DNA of 64,000 nucleotides, taken from the NCBI RefSeq assembly GCF_003018235.1, contig NZ_CP027437.1. One strand, written 5' to 3'. Positions 873 to 64,000 of this stretch are shown piece by piece. The DNA comes from Escherichia coli (GTDB lineage Bacteria > Pseudomonadota > Gammaproteobacteria > Enterobacterales > Enterobacteriaceae). The position numbers and the translations under genes were made by a program. Positions within the stretch are counted from its first letter, which is position 1, and every line of letters begins with the position of its first letter. The notes beneath the pieces are model-generated. The model was given only the letters and a program-made list of their open reading frames with translations, was not told the DNA's origin and searched no databases.

Positions 873-2048
<1,176 letters not shown>

Positions 2049-2236: not shown

Positions 2237-3193
2237 GTGAGACTCGTCCCGCTCTACCGCAACGCCCTTCTATTAACAGGACTTTTGCTTTCAGGAATAG
2301 TCGCAGTTCAGGCCGCCGACTGGCCGCGTCAGATTACTGACAGCCGTGGCACTCATTCCCTGGAAAGCCAGCCGCAGCGTATTGTTTCCACCAGCGTCAC
2401 CCTGACCGGCTCACTGCTGGCGATTGACGCTCCAGTGATTGCCAGCGGCGCGACCACGCCAAATAACCGCGTCGCGGATGACCAGGGCTTTTTACGCCAG
2501 TGGAGCAAGGTAGCGAAAGAACGCAAATTGCAACGACTCTATATCGGTGAACCAAGTGCCGAAGCCGTTGCCGCGCAAATGCCGGATCTGATTTTAATTA
2601 GCGCGACCGGCGGCGATTCGGCGCTGGCGCTGTATGATCAGCTTTCCACCATCGCCCCGACGTTAATCATCAATTACGACGACAAAAGCTGGCAGTCGCT
2701 GTTAACGCAACTTGGCGAAATTACCGGGCATGAGAAACAAGCGGCAGAGCGGATTGCACAGTTTGATAAGCAACTGGCGGCGGCGAAAGAGCAAATCAAA
2801 TTACCGCCGCAGCCGGTCACTGCCATTGTCTATACCGCCGCTGCACACAGTGCCAATCTCTGGACGCCGGAATCAGCACAAGGGCAGATGCTGGAACAAC
2901 TCGGCTTTACGTTGGCGAAATTGCCCGCAGGGTTAAATGCCAGCCAAAGCCAGGGTAAGCGTCATGACATCATTCAGCTTGGTGGGGAAAATCTGGCTGC
3001 AGGGTTAAATGGCGAGTCACTATTCCTGTTCGCCGGTGATCAGAAAGATGCCGATGCGATTTATGCTAATCCGCTGCTCGCGCACCTGCCTGCAGTACAA
3101 AACAAGCAGGTTTATGCGCTGGGAACCGAGACGTTCCGTCTGGATTACTACAGCGCCATGCAAGTGCTGGAACGGCTTAAGGCGCTGTTTTAA
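2237..3193 (+). CDS. fepB: ferric enterobactin periplasmic binding protein FepB
   Basis: 318-aa ORF with GTG start and signal peptide; recognised as FepB. Confidence 0.9.
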
Positions 3194-3196
3194 GCA

Positions 3197-4447
3197 TTAA
3201 CTGTCGGACGCTGTCACCTGCGGCGGCGTCTGGCGAAAACGCCGCAACTCCACCAGCACCAGCAATAACAATACGCCGATAATCAACAAACCAAAACCGC
3301 TTGCGCTTGCGGAAGCAACCGGTGTCATCATCGCGCCCAAACCGCCCAGCAGCGCCGCGCCTATGGCATCGCCCGTCACGTTTTGTGCCGTCCACAAACC
3401 GTTAATCCGCCCTAACATCGCTTCCGGGGTTTGCGTTTGCAGCATTGTATATTGCAGCAACGAACTAACCGCGCTCAGCCAGCCGAATAGCGCCAGACAA
3501 ATCACGCCTAAAATCCACATCGGCATCAGGCCAAACAGCCCAATGGCGAGGAACGATCCCAGCGTGGAGAGCAGCATCAATAACCCTGGTCGCGCGCTAT
3601 GTGCCAGCTTCCCGCTGGTTAACGCGCCAATAGCCGCGCCGAGCGGGATCGCCGCATAGAGAAAACCAATCTGTGCCGCCGACATCTGCCAGTTGTCAGC
3701 CAGCGCCGGATACAGTACCCGCACCGCACTCGCCATCGTCAATAAACCACCCAGCAGCGCAATCCCTCCCACCAGCGGGCTGGCGAGCAGAAAACGAAAT
3801 CCTGCCAGTAATGATTTCAACGGATGCTCACGCGGCTGCGGTGGCGGTGGCAACGCCGGAAGGCTTAATAACGGCAGCAAGGTAATAAACGTGCCCGCCG
3901 CCGCCAGCCCGTAGTTCCAGGCTACGCCGCCGGTCGCCAGCAATAAACCGCCAATCATAGGCGAAATCACCGACCCCAGACGCACGGTCAACATGGTGAT
4001 CGCCCCGGCCTGCATTAAGTTTTCACGCCCTACCAGTGCAGGTGTCGCCGCCAGTAGCGCCGTAACGCCAAGCGATGCGAAAAAACCATCCCATAAACCG
4101 AGTAAATAGATTGCCAATAGAGATGGCTCCGGCAGCAGCGCGTTCAGGCACAGTCCAATGAAGCCAATGCCACAGGTGCCGCGCGCCAGCAAAATCACTT
4201 TTTTGCGCTCATAGCGATCCGCCAGCACACCGCCGACCATCAGGCCAACAAACATCGCGCCGCCGGTCAGCGTCACCGAAAGCCCCACCTGCCAGGTAGA
4301 ATGCGTCATCATCTGGATCTGCACTGGTACCGCGACGCCGAGCAAACCCAGAGACACAATTGAGATAAAACGAGCGAGGAATACTGCGCGAAACGCCGGG
4401 TGCGTTTTCAACAGGCTGAGGTTAAGCAGCCAGGATTGTTTATTCAT
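3197..4447 (-). CDS. entS: enterobactin exporter EntS (MFS transporter)
   Basis: 416-aa highly hydrophobic ORF, convergent with fepB and divergent from fepD; recognised as EntS/YbdA. Confidence 0.9.
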
Positions 4448-4520
4448 TACAATGCCTTGCCATCAAATATTTTAAATACCTATTCTTAGGCTGCACATGC
4501 TAACATATCCAAATAAGATC

Positions 4521-4545
4521 GATAACGATAATTAATTTCATTATC
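4521..4545. promoter_or_regulatory. Fur box-like site in the entS/fepD divergent promoter
   Basis: gataacgataattaatttcattatc close to the Fur consensus, just upstream of the fepD start. Confidence 0.5.
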
Positions 4546-4557
4546 ATGGAAGTTCGT

Positions 4558-5562
4558 ATGTCTGGTTCTGTTGCCGTGACACGCGCCATTGCCGTGCCCG
4601 GATTGCTGTTATTACTGATTATCGCGACGGCATTAAGCCTGCTCATTGGGGCAAAATCACTCCCCGCTTCCGTAGTGCTGGAGGCCCTCTCCGGCACCTG
4701 CCAGAGCGCCGACTGCACCATCGTGCTCGACGCGCGGCTGCCGCGCACCCTTGCCGGTTTACTGGCAGGCGGCGCGCTTGGGCTTGCCGGGGCGTTAATG
4801 CAAACCCTCACCCGAAACCCACTTGCCGACCCCGGCTTGCTTGGTGTGAACGCCGGAGCCAGCTTTGCCATTGTGCTGGGTGCGGCGCTGTTTGGTTACT
4901 CATCCGCGCAGGAACAACTGGCGATGGCCTTCGCCGGGGCGCTGGTGGCCTCATTGATTGTTGCCTTTACCGGCAGCCAGGGCGGCGGGCAGTTAAGTCC
5001 GGTGCGTTTAACCCTGGCGGGCGTGGCGCTGGCGGCGGTGCTGGAAGGGCTGACCAGCGGCATCGCCCTGCTTAATCCTGACGTCTACGATCAACTGCGT
5101 TTCTGGCAAGCCGGTTCGCTGGATATTCGCAATCTACATACCTTAAAAGTTGTGCTGATCCCGGTGCTGATCGCCGGAGCAACCGCGCTATTACTGAGCC
5201 GCGCGCTGAACAGTTTAAGCCTCGGCAGTGACACCGCGACGGCGCTGGGCAGTCGCGTGGCGCGCACACAGTTGATTGGTCTGCTGGCGATTACCGTGCT
5301 TTGTGGTAGTGCAACGGCGGTAGTTGGCCCGATTGCCTTTATTGGCCTGATGATGCCGCATATGGCGCGTTGGCTGGTGGGTGCCGATCATCGCTGGTCG
5401 CTGCCCGTCACGCTGCTTGCTACCCCTGCCCTGCTGCTGTTTGCCGATATCATCGGGCGGGTGATTGTGCCCGGCGAACTGCGAGTTTCCGTGGTCAGTG
5501 CGTTTATTGGTGCACCGGTGCTGATCTTCCTCGTGCGACGTAAAACGCGAGGTGGCGCATGA
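4558..5562 (+). CDS. fepD: ferric enterobactin ABC transporter permease FepD
   Basis: Track ORF 4546..5562; start placed at MSGSVAVT by recognition of FepD; polytopic membrane protein. Confidence 0.85.
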   Translation: MSGSVAVTRAIAVPGLLLLLIIATALSLLIGAKSLPASVVLEALSGTCQSADCTIVLDARLPRTLAGLLAGGALGLAGALMQTLTRNPLADPGLLGVNAGASFAIVLGAALFGYSSAQEQLAMAFAGALVASLIVAFTGSQGGGQLSPVRLTLAGVALAAVLEGLTSGIALLNPDVYDQLRFWQAGSLDIRNLHTLKVVLIPVLIAGATALLLSRALNSLSLGSDTATALGSRVARTQLIGLLAITVLCGSATAVVGPIAFIGLMMPHMARWLVGADHRWSLPVTLLATPALLLFADIIGRVIVPGELRVSVVSAFIGAPVLIFLVRRKTRGGA

Positions 5563-6551
5563 TTTACGTCTCTCGCCGATTAATTATCACCTGTTTGCTG
5601 CTGGTTTCCGCCTGTGTGGTTGCAGGTATCTGGGGATTACGCAGCGGTACCATCACGCTGGAAACCTCGCAGATATTCGCCGCGCTGATGGGCGATGCGC
5701 CGCGCAGTATGACGATGGTGGTCACCGAATGGCGTTTACCACGCGTGCTGATGGCGCTGTTGATTGGCGCGGCACTGGGCGTCAGCGGCGCGATTTTTCA
5801 GTCGCTGATGCGTAACCCGCTCGGTAGTCCTGACGTAATGGGCTTTAACACCGGGGCGTGGAGCGGCGTGCTGGTGGCGATGGTGCTGTTTGGTCAGGAC
5901 CTGACGGCTATTGCCCTGGCAGCAATTGTGGGCGGCATTGTCACTTCGCTGCTGGTCTGGCTGCTCGCCTGGCGTAACGGCATCGACACCTTTCGGTTGA
6001 TTATTATTGGTATCGGCATTCGCGCCATGCTGGTGGCCTTTAATACCTGGCTGTTGCTGAAAGCGTCTTTAGAAACGGCGCTAACAGCGGGTTTGTGGAA
6101 TGCCGGATCGCTCAACGGCCTGACGTGGGCAAAAACCTCGCCTTCCGCACCCATCATTATATTGATGCTAATTGCCGCCGCCTTACTGGTACGCCGGATG
6201 CGCTTGCTGGAAATGGGCGATGATACCGCGTGTGCGCTGGGCGTCAGCGTCGAACGTTCGCGTCTGTTAATGATGCTGGTTGCCGTAGTGCTTACCGCTG
6301 CGGCAACAGCGCTTGCCGGGCCGATTTCCTTTATTGCTTTAGTCGCGCCACACATTGCCCGCCGCATTAGCAGCACCGCTCGCTGGGGGCTGACCCAGGC
6401 GGCGCTGTGCGGGGCGTTGTTACTGCTGGCGGCCGATCTCTGCGCCCAACAACTGTTTATGCCGTATCAACTTCCGGTTGGCGTCGTTACCGTCAGCCTC
6501 GGTGGTATTTACCTTATCGTCTTGTTAATTCAGGAGTCTCGCAAAAAATGA
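5559..6551 (+). CDS. fepG: ferric enterobactin ABC transporter permease FepG
   Basis: 330-aa ORF whose start overlaps the fepD stop by 4 nt; recognised as FepG. Confidence 0.9.
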   Translation: MIYVSRRLIITCLLLVSACVVAGIWGLRSGTITLETSQIFAALMGDAPRSMTMVVTEWRLPRVLMALLIGAALGVSGAIFQSLMRNPLGSPDVMGFNTGAWSGVLVAMVLFGQDLTAIALAAIVGGIVTSLLVWLLAWRNGIDTFRLIIIGIGIRAMLVAFNTWLLLKASLETALTAGLWNAGSLNGLTWAKTSPSAPIIILMLIAAALLVRRMRLLEMGDDTACALGVSVERSRLLMMLVAVVLTAAATALAGPISFIALVAPHIARRISSTARWGLTQAALCGALLLLAADLCAQQLFMPYQLPVGVVTVSLGGIYLIVLLIQESRKK

Positions 6552-60224: not shown

Positions 60225-60911
60225 TTAGAAGTTCAGATTTTTCAGTGCATTCAGTGCAGAGCCCACATCCTCAGCGTCGCGCAGGGACAGTGCGCCATAG
60301 CCCCCGGCCATGAATGCTTTGGCCTGGGTACGGGAGAGTCCGACATCACGCAGGACTCTTTCGATTTTTTTCTGTTCGGGGATTTCCCCGCGGGCCAGCG
60401 CGTTCTTGACGTCGCTGATCCGCGCCTCGTCGTTAGACGGAAACGTCACCAGACTGACTTCCCAGAGGTCGATTTCTTTCAACAGAAAGGCTTCTTTGCT
60501 CCGGTCGTATTCCCAGTCTTTCAGGACGTACCCAATAGAAAGGCCGGTTAACGAACCGGCCTTCATGTGTGCATGTGCGCGTTTTGCGAGGGGATCATCA
60601 TCAATAAGCAACCGTCCCCTGACGTAAAGCCCGACATCGTCTTCCTTCATTTCGGTGTAAACACCGATGGGTTCATCCATGCGGTGCTGCCAGAGCAGCG
60701 CAGGTAACGCTTTTCTGTCACTCCACGCCCGCAGGGAAGCAGCAAATGCCCCGGACATCACCACATCATCGTGGCTGTCCTTTACACCAAAGACGGAGCC
60801 ATACCCTTCAAACTCACCGGAGTCACTGACAGATTTCAGACTCAGCGGTACATCAAGACGTTGTTTCGTCTGCATTGGCGTTATCCTTCTGCTTACCGGC
60901 TTTACTGCCAT
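60225..60911 (-). CDS. prohead maturation protease, HK97 family
   Basis: 228-aa ORF between portal and capsid; the true start may lie at an internal Met, since the track ORF overlaps the portal end by 59 nt. Confidence 0.75.
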   Translation of the reverse strand: MAVKPVSRRITPMQTKQRLDVPLSLKSVSDSGEFEGYGSVFGVKDSHDDVVMSGAFAASLRAWSDRKALPALLWQHRMDEPIGVYTEMKEDDVGLYVRGRLLIDDDPLAKRAHAHMKAGSLTGLSIGYVLKDWEYDRSKEAFLLKEIDLWEVSLVTFPSNDEARISDVKNALARGEIPEQKKIERVLRDVGLSRTQAKAFMAGGYGALSLRDAEDVGSALNALKNLNF

Positions 60912-62094
60912 CGGAGGGTTTCGTGGTCATGTTCATCGGTGTGAGATAGACATCCCCACCGGGACGCGGATTCATATCTTCCAGGTCGCGGCAGTCATTG
61001 GGAGAGTAAATTCCCCAGTTAATCCCGGTGGCGTAGGCTTCAAAACGGGACTTCATATCCCCGCGCAGTAACGCCCCGGCGTTAAATTTGGCGTAATAAA
61101 CGCCCTGCTTACTTTTTCGTACCAGTCCGGTGTTGATCCGCTGCTCAATGCGGGTCAGATACGGCACCAGTGAATAGTTGATAAATCCCAGCCCCAGCTC
61201 TTCGATATTGTTGAAGGTGGCGCGATCGGTGTTCTGCACCATGTGCAATGGCACACGGAACAGACGACAGATTTCTTCAAGCTGAAACTTGCGGGTTTCC
61301 AGGAACTGGCTGTCCTCGGCGTTCAGCGCCATCGACTTCCAGTCCAGCCCCATCTCAAGGATCATCGGGCGGTGAGCATTACCAAGCCCGGTGTGACGCT
61401 CCTCAAAATCTTTCTTCAGACGCTCATAAGCCTGATCCGACAGCGTCTGCTCTGTACGCAACACACCGGACGTCACCGCACCATTGCTGAACAGTCTGGC
61501 CCCGTGCTCTTCGGTCGCAGCTGCCAGCGATATTGCCTCGCGGGCATAGGCGATGGGATTCAGTCCCACCAGACCGTCCAGCGTCAGCGTGCGCACATGC
61601 CAGATATCTTCCTGGCTCAGTACATCCGTGGAGCCGTCCGGGAATGTGACCTGGTAAACCGGTTCCCAGCTACTGTTAAGCTTCGGTACCACACAACCTG
61701 GGTCGACGGGCAGCAGTTCAGCCACTTCGCCAAATGCTTTCACTTTGTAGGCGTAAAAGTTTCCCCGCAGGCACAGACAGGTGATCACCAGCTCCCAGAA
61801 CTCCTGCGGCGTCATATAGCCATTGGGATGCGTGGAGATCAGCTTATGCAGACGTTCGCCGGTGGCTCTCTGTTTCAGGCTGCCGTTCAGGTGATACAGG
61901 TTGCAGGGCAACATCCCGACCGACTCCGCCAGCACCCTGACGCAGGAAAAAACCGCCGTCAGTCGCATGGCCCGCTGGCTGCTGATCTGCTTTCCGGTAT
62001 AGGTGTCATATGACAGCCCGATAGCATCCGCCAGCTCTGCTGGCGTGGTCACCGGTGCGTCACTTTTTCGTTGAAATAATCCCGAAAAGAACAC
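60853..62094 (-). CDS. portal protein, HK97 family
   Basis: 413-aa ORF upstream of the protease/capsid genes. Confidence 0.85.
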   Translation of the reverse strand: MFFSGLFQRKSDAPVTTPAELADAIGLSYDTYTGKQISSQRAMRLTAVFSCVRVLAESVGMLPCNLYHLNGSLKQRATGERLHKLISTHPNGYMTPQEFWELVITCLCLRGNFYAYKVKAFGEVAELLPVDPGCVVPKLNSSWEPVYQVTFPDGSTDVLSQEDIWHVRTLTLDGLVGLNPIAYAREAISLAAATEEHGARLFSNGAVTSGVLRTEQTLSDQAYERLKKDFEERHTGLGNAHRPMILEMGLDWKSMALNAEDSQFLETRKFQLEEICRLFRVPLHMVQNTDRATFNNIEELGLGFINYSLVPYLTRIEQRINTGLVRKSKQGVYYAKFNAGALLRGDMKSRFEAYATGINWGIYSPNDCRDLEDMNPRPGGDVYLTPMNMTTKPSDGSKAGKQKDNANADETTS

Positions 62095-62276
62095 TATTTA
62101 CCTCCGCCGACAGACGGCTGTGTACGGTCGAGATATCGCGCCACCAGCCACGACCAGAACAGGCACAGCGCCCCGGCAACAACAAACCCCGCCGGGGGAT
62201 AAATCAGCCAGGCACCATACGCCAGCAAAAGCGCACCCAGCACGCCCACCAGAGGCGCGAGAATCAGCATGATCAT
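62094..62276 (-). CDS. small two-span membrane protein of unknown function
   Basis: 60-aa hydrophobic ORF wedged between terminase and portal, start/stop-coupled to the portal gene. Confidence 0.4.
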
Positions 62277-62287
62277 AATTACCTCAG

Positions 62288-63949
62288 TTAAAGCGAGCGG
62301 ATCCCGTAGGACTCAATGTGATCAGACAGCGTGTCTTCTTTCTCGTACAGCATGGCTCTGCCAACCGCCATAATCAGCGCAACTGCACCATCAATTTTGT
62401 TTTCCGCCTGCTCCTTGACGGGCTTCACCACATCATCGTTACCCGGAATGGTTTTGCCGACCACGTTGCCGATACACCAGGTCATGATGGGATTGCCGTC
62501 ATGATGAAAACGCCCCGATTCAATTGCCGCTTCCAGCTCTTTCAGCGGGTCGGACATGTTGGTGTAGTTCTGAATGATGGTGATGGGGTTCAGGTCTTCA
62601 TCCGCAAGGTCATGCGACAGCCCGGTCGCCCCGAAGGGGTCGATGGGTGACTCACTGACCGGGCTGATTTTGTTCGCCGCTTTGGCCTCCTCGAGGATGT
62701 AGCGATAATCCACCTCCGCACCATCGGTAACGGTCAGAACGCCCATTTCCACCCATTTCTGAAAGCGCTCGGCTGTCCGGCGATCTTCATTTTTCTCGAC
62801 GCTGTACACCGTGTCATACGGTACCCAGAAGCGCGGAGCCACACTGTAGTAATGCGTTTTACCGTCAATCTCGCGGGTATAAAGTCGCGCCATACTGTTC
62901 ATATCCAGCTTACGCGCCAGGTCAAAGGCCAGAATGCACGGCTGCCCCTCAAACTGCTCAAGGGTCAGTGATTTATCCTCGCAGCTCTGCCAGCTCACCA
63001 GGTTGAAATACGCCGAACGCGCCGACACCCAGATATTGAGGTGTTTTGTTTTAAAGACGTTTGCCAGACGGGCGTTATTTTTCGCACGCTGCTGCTGACT
63101 TAACAAAAATTCGCGATAAACCGACACGCCAATATTTGGATTGGCTTTTTCCAGCACCTGCGGGTCGGTCCAGTCGTCACCTTCATCAACGGTATAGATG
63201 ATCCCGAACAGTTCATCGTTGGGCACCGAGCCGTTGAGCATCTCGATGACTTCCCGCCGCTTGTCGTAGCACGGCCCCTCAATGTTGTACCCGGCAGTAG
63301 TAATGGCCCACATCAGTGGCTGACGTCGCGCCCCCATCCCGGTAAGCATCGTGGTGTAAAGCGCATCGGTGGCGTGCTCGTGATATTCATCCACCACCGC
63401 ACAGTGGGGTGATGATCCATCACCGGGGTTACCGATCAGCGGTTCAAAACGCGCACCATCCTCCGGACGGTTCATGTTTGAGGCGTTAACCTCAATCCCG
63501 AACGCTTCCGTCAGCATGGGTGTGCGTTTACACATCAGTCGCGCCGGGCGAAAGACTTCCCACGCCTGTTTCTCTGTCGTGGCACCGGAATACACTTCCG
63601 CGCCAAACTCGTTATCACAGGCAAAACAATACAGGGCGACACCGGCAGAGATTGCCGATTTGCCGTTCTTACGGGGGATTTCGGTATACACCTCACGGAA
63701 GCGGCGCAGCCGGGAGCCTTTATTGACCCAGCCAAACGCGCAGCAGATCACAAAGAGCTGCCACGGCTCCAGCGTGATGGGCATCCTCTTGAATGCCCAC
63801 TCACCCTTGGTGTGCGGCAACAGCTGAATAAATTTGGCGGCCCGTTCAGCCAGGTCCTTGTCGAAGCGGTAACGAAACGACTTACTTTTTTCCGCCATCA
63901 GGTCATCAAGATGGCGCTGGCAGGCCTGAATCACAAACTGGCAGGCCAC
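62288..63949 (-). CDS. terminase large subunit
   Basis: 553-aa ORF at the head of the structural module. Confidence 0.85.
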
Positions 63950-64000
63950 AATCTTTCCGCGAACGACATCCCGGGCATACTGATTGGCAGCATTTACGTT

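Follow-up and report, generated by a model that had tools for sequence, protein, structure and literature searches.

YmfR, a predicted inner-membrane hairpin encoded between the large terminase and portal genes of an HK97-type head module

The locus and its 60-codon gene

The window analyzed here is a 64,000-nucleotide stretch of Escherichia coli contig NZ_CP027437.1 (assembly GCF_003018235.1). Toward its end, on the minus strand, the 3' part of a large terminase (TerL) gene is followed by a small open reading frame (ORF) and a portal gene (Table 1), and then, by Pfam matches in the window, by genes for an S78 protease and an HK97-type capsid protein. A prediction made earlier from the letters of this DNA alone (the original prediction) had described a 60-codon hydrophobic ORF between terminase and portal. 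The ORF lies exactly where it had been placed, and Pfam matches confirm both neighbors. The terminase and portal genes that flank it are intact, so the head module looks functional.

Table 1. Features of the TerL-ymfR-portal junction in window coordinates
Feature	Position	Strand	Basis
Portal gene, PF04860, GTG start	60853..62094	minus	Pfam match
Recombination patch common with phiP27	61925..62345		Identity 95-100% versus flanks 55-85%
ymfR-family CDS, 60 aa, phrog_502, small inner-membrane helical hairpin (predicted); ATG at 62276-62274, TAG stop at 62096-62094	62094..62276	minus	Sequence, family match, AlphaFold2
Variable basic cytoplasmic tail (predicted), codons 47-60	62097..62138	minus	Charge statistics
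Portal Shine-Dalgarno GGAGGT, within Gly-Gly codons of the ymfR C terminus	62100..62105	minus	Read from sequence
Helix 2, hydrophobic part (predicted), codons 29-46 (conserved G35, C38, L39, S42)	62139..62192	minus	Alignment, AlphaFold2
Tight periplasmic turn P-P-A (predicted), codons 26-28, conserved family-wide	62193..62201	minus	Alignment, AlphaFold2, charge statistics
Predicted transmembrane helix 1, codons 2-25 (conserved G11, G14, G21, W23)	62202..62273	minus	Alignment, AlphaFold2
ymfR Shine-Dalgarno GAGGT, 4 nt to ATG; TerL stop codon 11 nt upstream	62281..62285	minus	Read from sequence
TerL, 3' part, PF03354 + PF20441; start outside window end	62288..64000	minus	Pfam match

The ORF matches phrog_502 (E=1.7e-28, residues 1-55 against positions 3-57 of the 58-position profile). 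Window DNA is 99.2% identical over 251 nt to MG1655-derived genomes, in which PGAP annotates the feature as "ymfR: protein YmfR." The gene is already known, as a gene of the cryptic e14 prophage catalogued as a PHROG; K-12 e14 YmfR (b1150), ST64B Sb3, phiP27 L37, SfII_03, and the phrog_502 "membrane protein" are all the same gene as the window ORF, and it was found in 1,349 of 5,426 complete E. coli genomes. The e14 copy has the same length and the same neighbors, terminase upstream and portal downstream, but there the two flanking genes survive only as truncated pseudogenes. Records assign no function to any phrog_502 member, e14 YmfR included.

Further searches added little to this identification. 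The only PHROGs matched at E<=1 were 502, 7105, 12448, 11301, and 33409. Nothing meaningful matched in sequence searches of Pfam, NCBIfam, PADLOC, and PDB, and among the PADLOC defense models there were 0 families at E<=1 both for ymfR and for the SfV analogue described below. When the 60-aa protein was compared with phages by tblastn, its N-terminal half was lost to low-complexity masking; a locus search with a family alignment returned near-identical loci only and served for allele counts, not diversity. Literature on SfII/ST64B and on terminase, portal, and transmembrane together yielded no function for ymfR, and literature on small membrane proteins near terminase or portal yielded generic holin text only. 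The TerI anti-packaging system of Listeria phages is unrelated, since both the gene and its locus differ.

We observed that ymfR is a real gene under purifying selection. Variable sites fall mostly at codon position 3 (17/26), dN/dS is 0.13 to 0.39, and length is conserved across 166 close and 169 representative homologues. Low dS in the comparison with phiP27 had raised the suspicion of constraint on synonymous sites. The suspicion was rejected: against Klebsiella and PY54 dS is saturated, and the zone of low dS is itself a 420-bp patch of recombination.

AlphaFold2 modeled the protein as two helices, residues 2 to 25 and 29 to 52, with a mean pLDDT of 74.8. In 135 family representatives, Lys plus Arg averaged 1.74 per protein at the N terminus, 0.19 in the loop, and 2.39 at the C terminus, and the first charged residue after the second helix was R or K in 111. 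YmfR is hence predicted to be a helical hairpin with both termini in the cytoplasm and a Pro-Pro-Ala turn of 3 to 4 residues in the periplasm. The two membrane spans of the original prediction are upheld by the two hydrophobic helices of the model together with these charge statistics. G14 and G35 are invariant, G21 and W23 are nearly so, and the P-P-A turn is kept, down to 33% identity. The conserved part lies within the membrane. The cytoplasmic tail, which would be the natural surface for an interaction with the portal, is conserved least, and the portal Shine-Dalgarno (SD) sequence constrains its last residues; this speaks against a role in portal assembly. By alignment and its AlphaFold2 model, YmfR itself conforms to the family pattern, a hydrophobic two-helix hairpin of ~60 aa with a conserved Gly/Trp/Pro-Pro-Ala core. 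We conclude that the ORF is almost certainly ymfR/phrog_502, a late-operon inner-membrane hairpin, predicted N-in/C-in, and the portal-end, portal-coupled gene of an HK97-type head module.

Coupling to the portal gene and inheritance with it

The TAG stop of ymfR and the GTG start of the portal gene share base 62094 (TAGTG). An overlap of 1 to 8 nt between the two genes, with the SD inside the last ymfR codons, was present in 8 of 10 family members, and members in Burkholderia and Mycobacterium phages overlap the portal start in the same way. The translational coupling that had been proposed for this junction is well supported by the overlap and by the portal SD encoded in the ymfR C terminus. 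Could the portal carry a matching signature at the protein level? We found no portal N-terminal motif specific to hairpin-bearing phages; M-F-F-x-x-L-F is rejected as evidence because portals without the hairpin carry it too.

The position of the gene is strongly conserved. Of the close viral loci fetched that are long enough to show it, 80 of 80 kept the TerL-ORF-portal order, and phages of the SfI/SfII/SfIV/ST64B/phiP27 type all keep ymfR. Among sampled representatives of distant relatives at 33 to 42% identity, 8 of 8 lay directly upstream of a portal gene (PF04860) or of a TerL-flanked portal gene. Members of phrog_502 occupy the same slot in Mycobacterium phage Optimus (3e-17), Burkholderia phage vB_E174 (5e-15), and Yersinia phage PY54 (2e-17). 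Hairpin CDSs are missing from the records of SfV, SfIV, PY54, and vB_E174. Absence of the ORF from related prophages would have told against the original prediction. Conservation there is in fact strong, which favors a module-intrinsic gene over a moron.

A ymfR-like ORF was absent only among very distant HK97-type modules. In a sample of 19 diverse modules of this type the TerL-portal junction was empty in 11, so the earlier description of the position as "usually empty" was a fair one. The gene is dispensable in many lineages.

Does the hairpin belong with the terminase or with the portal? SfV has a TerL 88% identical to that of the window, but its portal is only 28% identical and its hairpin is of another type (phrog_7105). 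Conversely, phi467 and 606R7 keep the portal and ymfR with a different TerL. The patch in common with phiP27 spans the last ~18 TerL codons, ymfR, and the first ~57 portal codons. In Mantel tests, hairpin distances correlated with those of the portal (r=0.42, p=0.0065) but not with those of TerL (r=-0.04, p=0.53); with two close relatives removed, the portal correlation was weaker (r=0.32, p=0.054). Judged by the three mosaic joints and the Mantel test, ymfR travels with the portal and not with the terminase. The linkage might mean no more than that recombination joints are tolerated at the TerL 3' end. Segregation of the family with portal rather than terminase seems not to have been described in the searchable literature. 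The same seems true of the family as an ancient, positionally fixed portal companion in proteobacterial and actinobacterial phages, with similar-looking ORFs in phages of Firmicutes.

Candidate functions of the hairpin

We favor, at a probability of roughly 0.35, a reading modeled on T4 gp40, in which YmfR is an accessory factor that helps the portal or the procapsid to initiate at the inner membrane. In T4, viral gp40 assists the portal initiator gp20 in assembling on that membrane (PMC9958956). The YmfR hairpin would be made in step with the portal protein by the same ribosome traffic and would then enter the inner membrane. There, a conserved face of small residues (G11/G14/G21 and G35/S42) suggests self-association or packing within the membrane. 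The effect of the hairpin might then be to concentrate or anchor at the membrane either new portal subunits or the initiating procapsid or packaging complex. The hairpin would be helpful rather than essential for an HK97-type head, because many HK97-type phages, HK97 included, lack it. The 11 empty slots among 19, and the assembly of HK97 portals without such a factor, mean that the function cannot be a core one.

The hairpin would also not be incorporated into virions. Mass spectrometry of Omega virions listed the portal gp13 and nothing encoded between TerL gp10/11 and gp13 (PMC3706429). This absence carries little weight, since mass spectrometry easily misses proteins that are small and hydrophobic. 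The claim that ymfR is not a structural gene is probably right, weakly so, on the strength of this virion list (PMC3706429).

Perhaps YmfR is instead a moron, as the original prediction had suggested: a membrane peptide made from the repressed prophage that blocks DNA entry by incoming phage or otherwise benefits the lysogen. HK97 gp15 and T4 Imm are superinfection-exclusion proteins of this kind. A small inner-membrane protein would suit such a role, phrog_502 is filed under "moron, auxiliary metabolic gene and host takeover," and the distribution of ymfR over distant HK97-type phages is uneven. True morons do occur at the TerL-portal junction, where a Streptococcus suis phage carries a Phd/Doc toxin-antitoxin pair. 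In e14, moreover, ymfR is intact although its neighbors are pseudogenes. However, the PHROG category simply mirrors the label "membrane protein," and the intact e14 copy may only reflect a target of 183 nt. We found no sigma-70-like promoter directly upstream of ymfR, with promoter-like counts not above those of shuffled sequence, and terminator-like matches around the gene showed no excess over shuffled controls. ymfR is tightly coupled on both sides. Its GC3 (0.689) resembles that of TerL, portal, protease, and major capsid protein genes (0.598 to 0.667), and its higher total GC comes from Gly, Ala, Pro, and Leu codons. This composition, and a TerL-ORF-portal slot kept down to 33 to 42% identity, tell against the earlier description of the ORF as "inserted." Morons are typically sporadic between close relatives, whereas ymfR was retained at all 80 close loci and holds one slot from enterobacterial to Mycobacterium phages. 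No PADLOC model matched, and in K-12 ymfR was induced under SOS (log2FC 4.5) together with the e14 lytic genes (PMC10012262). On this evidence the moron or superinfection-exclusion reading is unlikely.

Some other late function in the membrane is also conceivable: a block to wasteful reinfection of doomed cells by depolarizing or modifying the membrane, a tether for the packaging motor or DNA, or an activity against an abortive-infection effector that acts on membranes. Any of these would suit a late-expressed, conserved membrane hairpin. None explains the constant position upstream of the portal, the overlap, and the coinheritance, and we regard this group of functions as rather unlikely.

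We wondered if YmfR might be related to lysis, as a class II holin-like, pinholin-like, or antiholin hairpin that tunes membrane integrity or lysis timing late in infection. Its architecture is generically that of a class II holin, with ~60 aa, two transmembrane helices, N-in/C-in topology, glycine-rich faces, and a basic C-terminal tail, and it is expressed with the late genes. Two transmembrane helices and a charged cytoplasmic C terminus are a generic combination and not a diagnostic one. No holin family in Pfam or PHROGs matched at E<=1, and ymfR never adjoined an endolysin gene in the sampled loci. SfII has its own cassette elsewhere (class I holin S, lysin R, and Rz/Rz1), and Cluster J mycobacteriophages carry a separate two-transmembrane holin beside lysB (PMC3706429). 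An ASKA overexpression screen of membrane y-genes that included ymfR did not flag lethality, though this is weak evidence (PMC10299036). A lysis role is, in our estimate, quite unlikely.

We give equally little credence to the idea that the ORF is mainly a translational device, in which termination and reinitiation set portal dosage and the peptide is incidental. Each head requires just 12 copies of the portal protein. The conserved overlap with its embedded SD (8 of 10 members) is what such a device would need, and the C-terminal residues are biased to Gly, Glu, and Lys, whose codons encode the SD. But members at as little as 33% identity still conserve the hairpin at the amino acid level, dN/dS is far below 1, and a pure spacer would not remain a two-transmembrane hairpin in phages of three phyla. 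Many relatives, moreover, couple the portal straight to TerL without any hairpin.

Two further readings can be set aside with near certainty. GenBank records ON470584, ON470603, and PQ793804 label the protein as a head-tail joining protein of the lambda gpW type. Between its terminase A and portal B genes lambda likewise encodes W (68 aa), and gpW is a soluble protein. Position and size are all that speak for this identity; there was no match to the gpW family (PF02831) at E<=1, and YmfR is a predicted hydrophobic transmembrane hairpin, so that the identity is refuted at the level of sequence and fold. The label is a positional annotation transfer. The other reading, that ymfR is a chance ORF or noncoding spacer and that the real feature is an antisense 78-aa ORF (62055..62291, plus strand) or an RNA element, could draw on the short, GC-rich, low-complexity character of ymfR and on a terminator annotated within its homologue in the SfII record; it is ruled out by the codon-position pattern, since the antisense frame puts the 17 of 26 variable sites at position 1 while the minus-strand frame fits, by the hundreds of homologues of conserved length, and by the SfII "terminator" region, which folds no better than shuffled sequence (z=-0.29).

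Comparison with known systems

Among the systems that YmfR resembles, morons of the HK97 gp15 type are likewise small membrane proteins encoded within a morphogenesis operon. They differ in what ymfR lacks: its own promoter and terminator, a compositional shift, and sporadic presence among close relatives. Class II holins and pinholins such as phage 21 S21 share with YmfR a length of ~60 to 70 aa, two transmembrane helices, glycine-rich faces, and a charged C-terminal tail. They differ in that YmfR has no match to their families and is encoded outside the lysis cassette. Were YmfR an exclusion factor or a lysis modulator, ymfR would be a routine accessory gene.

Closer in position is the SfV-type hairpin (phrog_7105), which the SfV record leaves without annotation. 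This 53-aa two-transmembrane hairpin with a basic tail fills the slot that ymfR has in the window, and its start overlaps the TerL stop. Profile matches between the two types are reciprocal and weak (SfV hairpin versus phrog_502, 5.7e-6; window ORF versus phrog_7105, 0.023), but pairwise similarity is not significant (BLASTP E=0.32), and the SfV type accompanies the other type of portal, 28% identical, behind the 88%-identical TerL. In Gram-positive hosts, ORF3 of Lactobacillus phages BH1/Lrm1 is a 63-aa two-transmembrane ORF between TerL and an HK97-type portal (PMC6950654). Like it, a 54-aa ORF of Enterococcus phage EfaCPT1 is two-span and fills the TerL-portal slot ahead of the protease and capsid genes (phrog_8943/phrog_1142). 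The EfaCPT1 ORF matches phrog_502 only at E=7.5e-3 and is separated from TerL by a 69-nt gap and an annotated terminator. By sequence, the BH1/Lrm1 and EfaCPT1 ORFs may be analogues of ymfR rather than homologues.

We can imagine, as a doubtful extension of the favored reading, that the phrog_502 hairpin, the SfV type, and possibly the Gram-positive counterparts form a widespread, unrecognized portal-assembly or procapsid-initiation factor in a large share of HK97-type phages, one that would confine portal synthesis or ring formation to the inner membrane. If so, membrane-nucleated head assembly, known from T4, would be a general strategy. Should YmfR take part in starting the portal or procapsid at the membrane, this would close a gap in what is otherwise a well-understood route of HK97-type assembly and give one of the y-genes of E. 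coli K-12 a function. It would also correct the default database class "moron" for the family, the labels "head-tail joining protein W," and the missing CDSs of SfV, SfIV, PY54, and vB_E174.

The comparison on which the favored reading is modeled is with T4 gp40 and gp20. In T4, genes 40 and 20 are not neighbors. YmfR and gp40 are unrelated in sequence, with no similarity at E<=1 of ymfR to T4 gp40 or to a PHROG annotated as an assembly chaperone, and HK97-type heads can assemble without such a factor. The likeness is functional only, in that a phage factor is needed for the portal initiator at the inner membrane (PMC9958956). YmfR, for its part, is by prediction a membrane protein genetically tied to the portal.

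The ymfR gene and its product

The original prediction had placed a small ORF between terminase and portal genes and described it as translationally coupled to the portal. Its coordinates were exact, and the sequence is read on the minus strand. Pfam searches gave the minus-strand order TerL (large terminase), ymfR ORF, portal, S78 prohead protease and HK97-type major capsid protein. The ORF, which the NCBI pipeline calls "ymfR: protein YmfR", starts 11 nt past the TerL stop and carries its own Shine-Dalgarno (SD) sequence, GAGGT, 4 bases 5' of the ATG. At its far end, the TAG stop and the portal GTG have one base in common (TAGTG), and the portal SD, GGAGGT, is encoded by Gly-Gly codons among the final ymfR residues. 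Hence, the description was correct, portal coupling included. TerL runs past the window end, and the TerS, HNH and lysis cassette genes of the prophage therefore lie outside. The TerL GTG start listed at 63949 is an artefact; the SfV homologue starts about 24 codons further upstream.

Features at the TerL-portal junction in the window and in related loci
Sequence	Feature	Position	Strand	Details
Window	TerL gene	62288 to beyond window end	minus	PF03354 ATPase and PF20441 nuclease
Window	ymfR ORF	62094-62276	minus	ATG 62276-62274, TAG 62096-62094; 60 residues
Window	terminator-like G+C hairpin	62186-62200	minus	CCCCCGGCGGGG then TTTGTTGTT; codons of the Pro-Pro-Ala-Gly turn and Phe-Val-Val
Window	portal gene	62094..60853	minus	PF04860
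SfV (L002, U82619.2)	two-TM ORF, unannotated	2762-2923	minus	MKSLIADVIGLAGFGLLTCGVYLQFGMAPALILSGALLLVGALAMARRGTRAA; 53 aa
e14 prophage of a K-12 derivative (L107)	terminase remnant, ymfR, portal remnant	3887-5624		ymfR intact between the two pseudogenes
SfIV (KC814930)	phrog_502 member	2382-2483		no CDS annotation
Yersinia phage PY54 (L089)	phrog_502 member	2295-2492		no CDS annotation
Burkholderia phage vB_E174 (L096)	phrog_502 member	915-1100		no CDS annotation
Streptococcus phage phi-SsuJS7_SSU0237 (S. suis, L094)	Phd/Doc toxin-antitoxin pair	342-967

Is the ORF translated into a selected protein? Among 23 distinct 183-nt alleles of ymfR from the fetched loci, 26 sites varied: 17 at codon position 3, 6 at position 1 and 3 at position 2. 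The same sites mostly occupy position 1 of an antisense 78-codon ORF. Against relatives spanning 98% to 36% amino-acid identity, dN/dS was 0.13-0.39 (Nei-Gojobori). YmfR matched the profile of the PHROG family phrog_502 ("membrane protein") at E=1.7e-28; the 90%-clustered database contains 166 homologues, and clustering at 50% identity gives 169 representatives, almost every one 50-70 aa long. We conclude that ymfR is a real gene; that it is a chance ORF is scarcely credible.

AlphaFold2 and the family alignment placed helices at residues 2-25 and 29-52 (mean pLDDT 74.8). The family core reads LIGLxGAxLxxYGAWLxYPPAGxIVxGxLxLxWS; its G14 and G35 never vary, G21 and W23 hardly do, and the hydrophilic tail differs between members. 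Across 135 representatives, Lys plus Arg averaged 1.74 before helix 1, 0.19 in the turn and 2.39 past helix 2, and Arg or Lys was the first charged residue past helix 2 in 111. By the positive-inside rule, both YmfR termini are predicted to be cytoplasmic and the Pro-Pro-Ala turn periplasmic. The C-terminal residues are rich in Gly, Glu and Lys because their codons also serve as the portal ribosome-binding site.

The gene is already known, as a catalogued entry of unknown function. By megablast, the locus is present in 1349 of 5426 complete E. coli genomes, and the K-12 e14 copy is 99.2% identical to that of the window. In e14, the terminase pseudogene lacks its N-terminus and the portal pseudogene its C-terminus, the portal remnant being fused next to a truncated baseplate J gene. 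The literature searched assigned ymfR no function: it is mentioned in deletion lists, in an ASKA screen of membrane y-genes (PMC10299036) and in one transcriptome. In the SOS response it rises by log2FC 4.5 alongside ymfL, ymfM, ymfQ, tfaP, xisE and other e14 genes (PMC10012262).

Homologues are labelled "putative integral membrane protein" in SfII_03, phiP27 L37, ST64B sb3 and 118970_sal3, and "hypothetical protein" in the SfI record; the unannotated members in PY54, vB_E174 and SfIV occupy TerL-portal "gaps" of ~190 bp. Four recent records among the search hits, ON470584.1 (H1), ON470603.1 (H2), PQ793804.1 (H12) and ON470580.1 (H19), use "head-tail joining protein W". Since the Pfam search gave no gpW match and the protein is a transmembrane hairpin, this label appears to be a mis-annotation transferred by position from lambda, and a gpW-type protein can be set aside as highly improbable. 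The 1764-bp record OR844959.1, "Enterococcus phage Efm 3-10" (H18, H34), is attributed to an Enterococcus faecium phage and yet ~94% identical to the enterobacterial terminase-ymfR-portal region; it probably reflects contamination or a labelling error.

Linkage to the portal rather than the terminase

Three independent mosaic joints all fall within the last ~6-27 TerL codons. TerL sharing between SfV and the window stops at 62369, past which both the hairpin and the portal of SfV differ. Phi467 and 606R7 have portal and ymfR in common with the window up to 62305, with another TerL. Identity to phiP27 (L003) is 95-100% from ~62345 to 61925 and 55-85% on both sides. This 420-bp patch covers the C-terminal ~18 codons of TerL, ymfR and the first ~57 portal codons, and dS was 0.06 in ymfR versus 0.8-1.4 in the flanks. 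The patch is a short tract of recent recombination; the TerL tail and portal N-terminus that it spans may be co-adapted as a unit.

Over 12 loci, hairpin identity tracked that of the portal (Mantel r=0.42, p=0.0065; weaker without two close relatives, r=0.32, p=0.054) and not that of TerL (r=-0.04, p=0.53); between TerL and portal there was likewise no correlation (r=0.03). For the metagenomic member L108, vB_E174 and SfV, identities were 67-88% in TerL, 29-39% in the hairpin and 28-31% in the portal. In 8/10 phrog_502 members, hairpin stop and portal start share 1-8 nt. Mosaic joints, phiP27 patch, distance correlations and translational overlap together assign ymfR to the portal module.

The SfV hairpin ORF (phrog_7105, the SfV-type family, E=3e-22) fills an apparent 100-bp TerL-portal gap, its ATG overlapping the TerL stop (ATGA). 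As annotated, the SfV portal gene begins with a GTG (L002 2820), overlaps this ORF by 59 nt and has an unusual N-terminus, MLYCWWAHWLW...; more probably it starts at VLLDALFRSK, near L002 2772.

The TerL-portal slot and the moron interpretation

From 2095 phage records with related portals, we surveyed 19 diverse HK97-type junctions. The slot was empty in 11: HK97, mEp235 and phages of Acinetobacter, Caulobacter, Burkholderia (Bcep176), Clostridium, Aeromonas, Pseudomonas, Paenibacillus, Staphylococcus and Acutalibacteraceae. Six held a two-TM ORF of 54-67 aa (Klebsiella phi6.3, Yersinia PY54, Vibrio K308, Mycobacterium Optimus gp8, Burkholderia vB_E174, Enterococcus EfaCPT1), one a non-membrane 69-aa ORF (Mycobacterium phage SpongeBob) and one the Phd/Doc pair. 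Optimus gp8 (E=3e-17) and the unannotated vB_E174 (5e-15) and PY54 (2e-17) ORFs belong to phrog_502; those of Vibrio and SfV fall in phrog_7105 and also hit phrog_502; that of Enterococcus falls in phrog_8943/1142, its phrog_502 match being marginal only. At least the proteobacterial and actinobacterial hairpins are one family. A 63-aa two-TM ORF3 is reported at the same place in Lactobacillus phages BH1 and Lrm1 (PMC6950654). The slot is thus optional and, when filled, usually holds a two-TM hairpin of the ymfR kind, a pattern opposite to that of sporadic recent insertion. Modules bearing the family (L108-L111 and relatives) typically open with genes for an HNH endonuclease and a small terminase subunit (Terminase_4); their prohead protease is of S78 or S49/NfeD type, and the hairpin thus goes with more than one kind of protease.

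Could ymfR nevertheless be a moron, as first suggested? No sigma-70-like promoter was found directly 5' of it, and promoter and terminator counts around it lay inside shuffled expectation. The "rho-independent terminator" annotated within the ORF in SfII folds no better than shuffles (z=-0.29). The hairpin at 62186-62200 was rejected as a terminator: it consists of conserved-turn codons, and terminator-like sites here are not above chance. Total GC is 0.612 versus about 0.55, and GC3 is 0.689 versus 0.60-0.67 in neighbours; because GC3 is near the neighbours' values, the excess reflects amino-acid composition. Each of the 80 close viral-contig loci long enough to show it keeps the terminase-ORF-portal arrangement. 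Wherever flanks of distant representatives (33-42% identity) could be identified, the ORF lay directly between the TerL nuclease domain and a PF04860 portal (8/8), the usual gene order being HNH, TerS, TerL, hairpin, portal, protease, capsid. This synteny is ancient. The Phd/Doc pair exemplifies a true moron at this junction, and the junction therefore serves genuine morons elsewhere among HK97-type phages as an insertion site. The interpretation was thus partly supported: a two-span membrane ORF, probably non-structural, stands, and "inserted" and moron-like fail by any testable criterion. An exclusion or moron function expressed in the lysogen is accordingly unlikely.

A proposed role at the portal

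YmfR is a conserved, selected, late-operon inner-membrane hairpin tied to the portal genetically and translationally, and we infer that it acts on the portal. Another late membrane role is slightly less likely than lysogenic exclusion. It is more doubtful still that YmfR is holin-like or modulates lysis: it has no holin family match, and SfII has a canonical S/R/Rz/Rz1 cassette. Equally doubtful is a pure translational-coupling device, which conservation of the peptide contradicts.

Our preferred reading, to which we give a probability of roughly 0.35, is an accessory one: the hairpin would act at the membrane to concentrate or anchor either nascent portal or the initiating procapsid. Against this mechanism, most HK97-type phages lack the hairpin, and its conserved surface is intramembrane rather than cytoplasmic. 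The Omega virion proteome contained the portal, gp13, and nothing encoded between TerL and portal (PMC3706429), an absence weakly compatible with a non-structural assembly factor; Omega gp12 would be the hairpin by synteny with Optimus gp8. The outcome is a sharper, testable hypothesis for an E. coli y-gene, with several annotation corrections. We propose an accessory portal or procapsid role because the closest mechanistic precedent is that of T4, in which the gp20 portal initiator assembles on the inner membrane, aided by the viral factor gp40 (PMC9958956).
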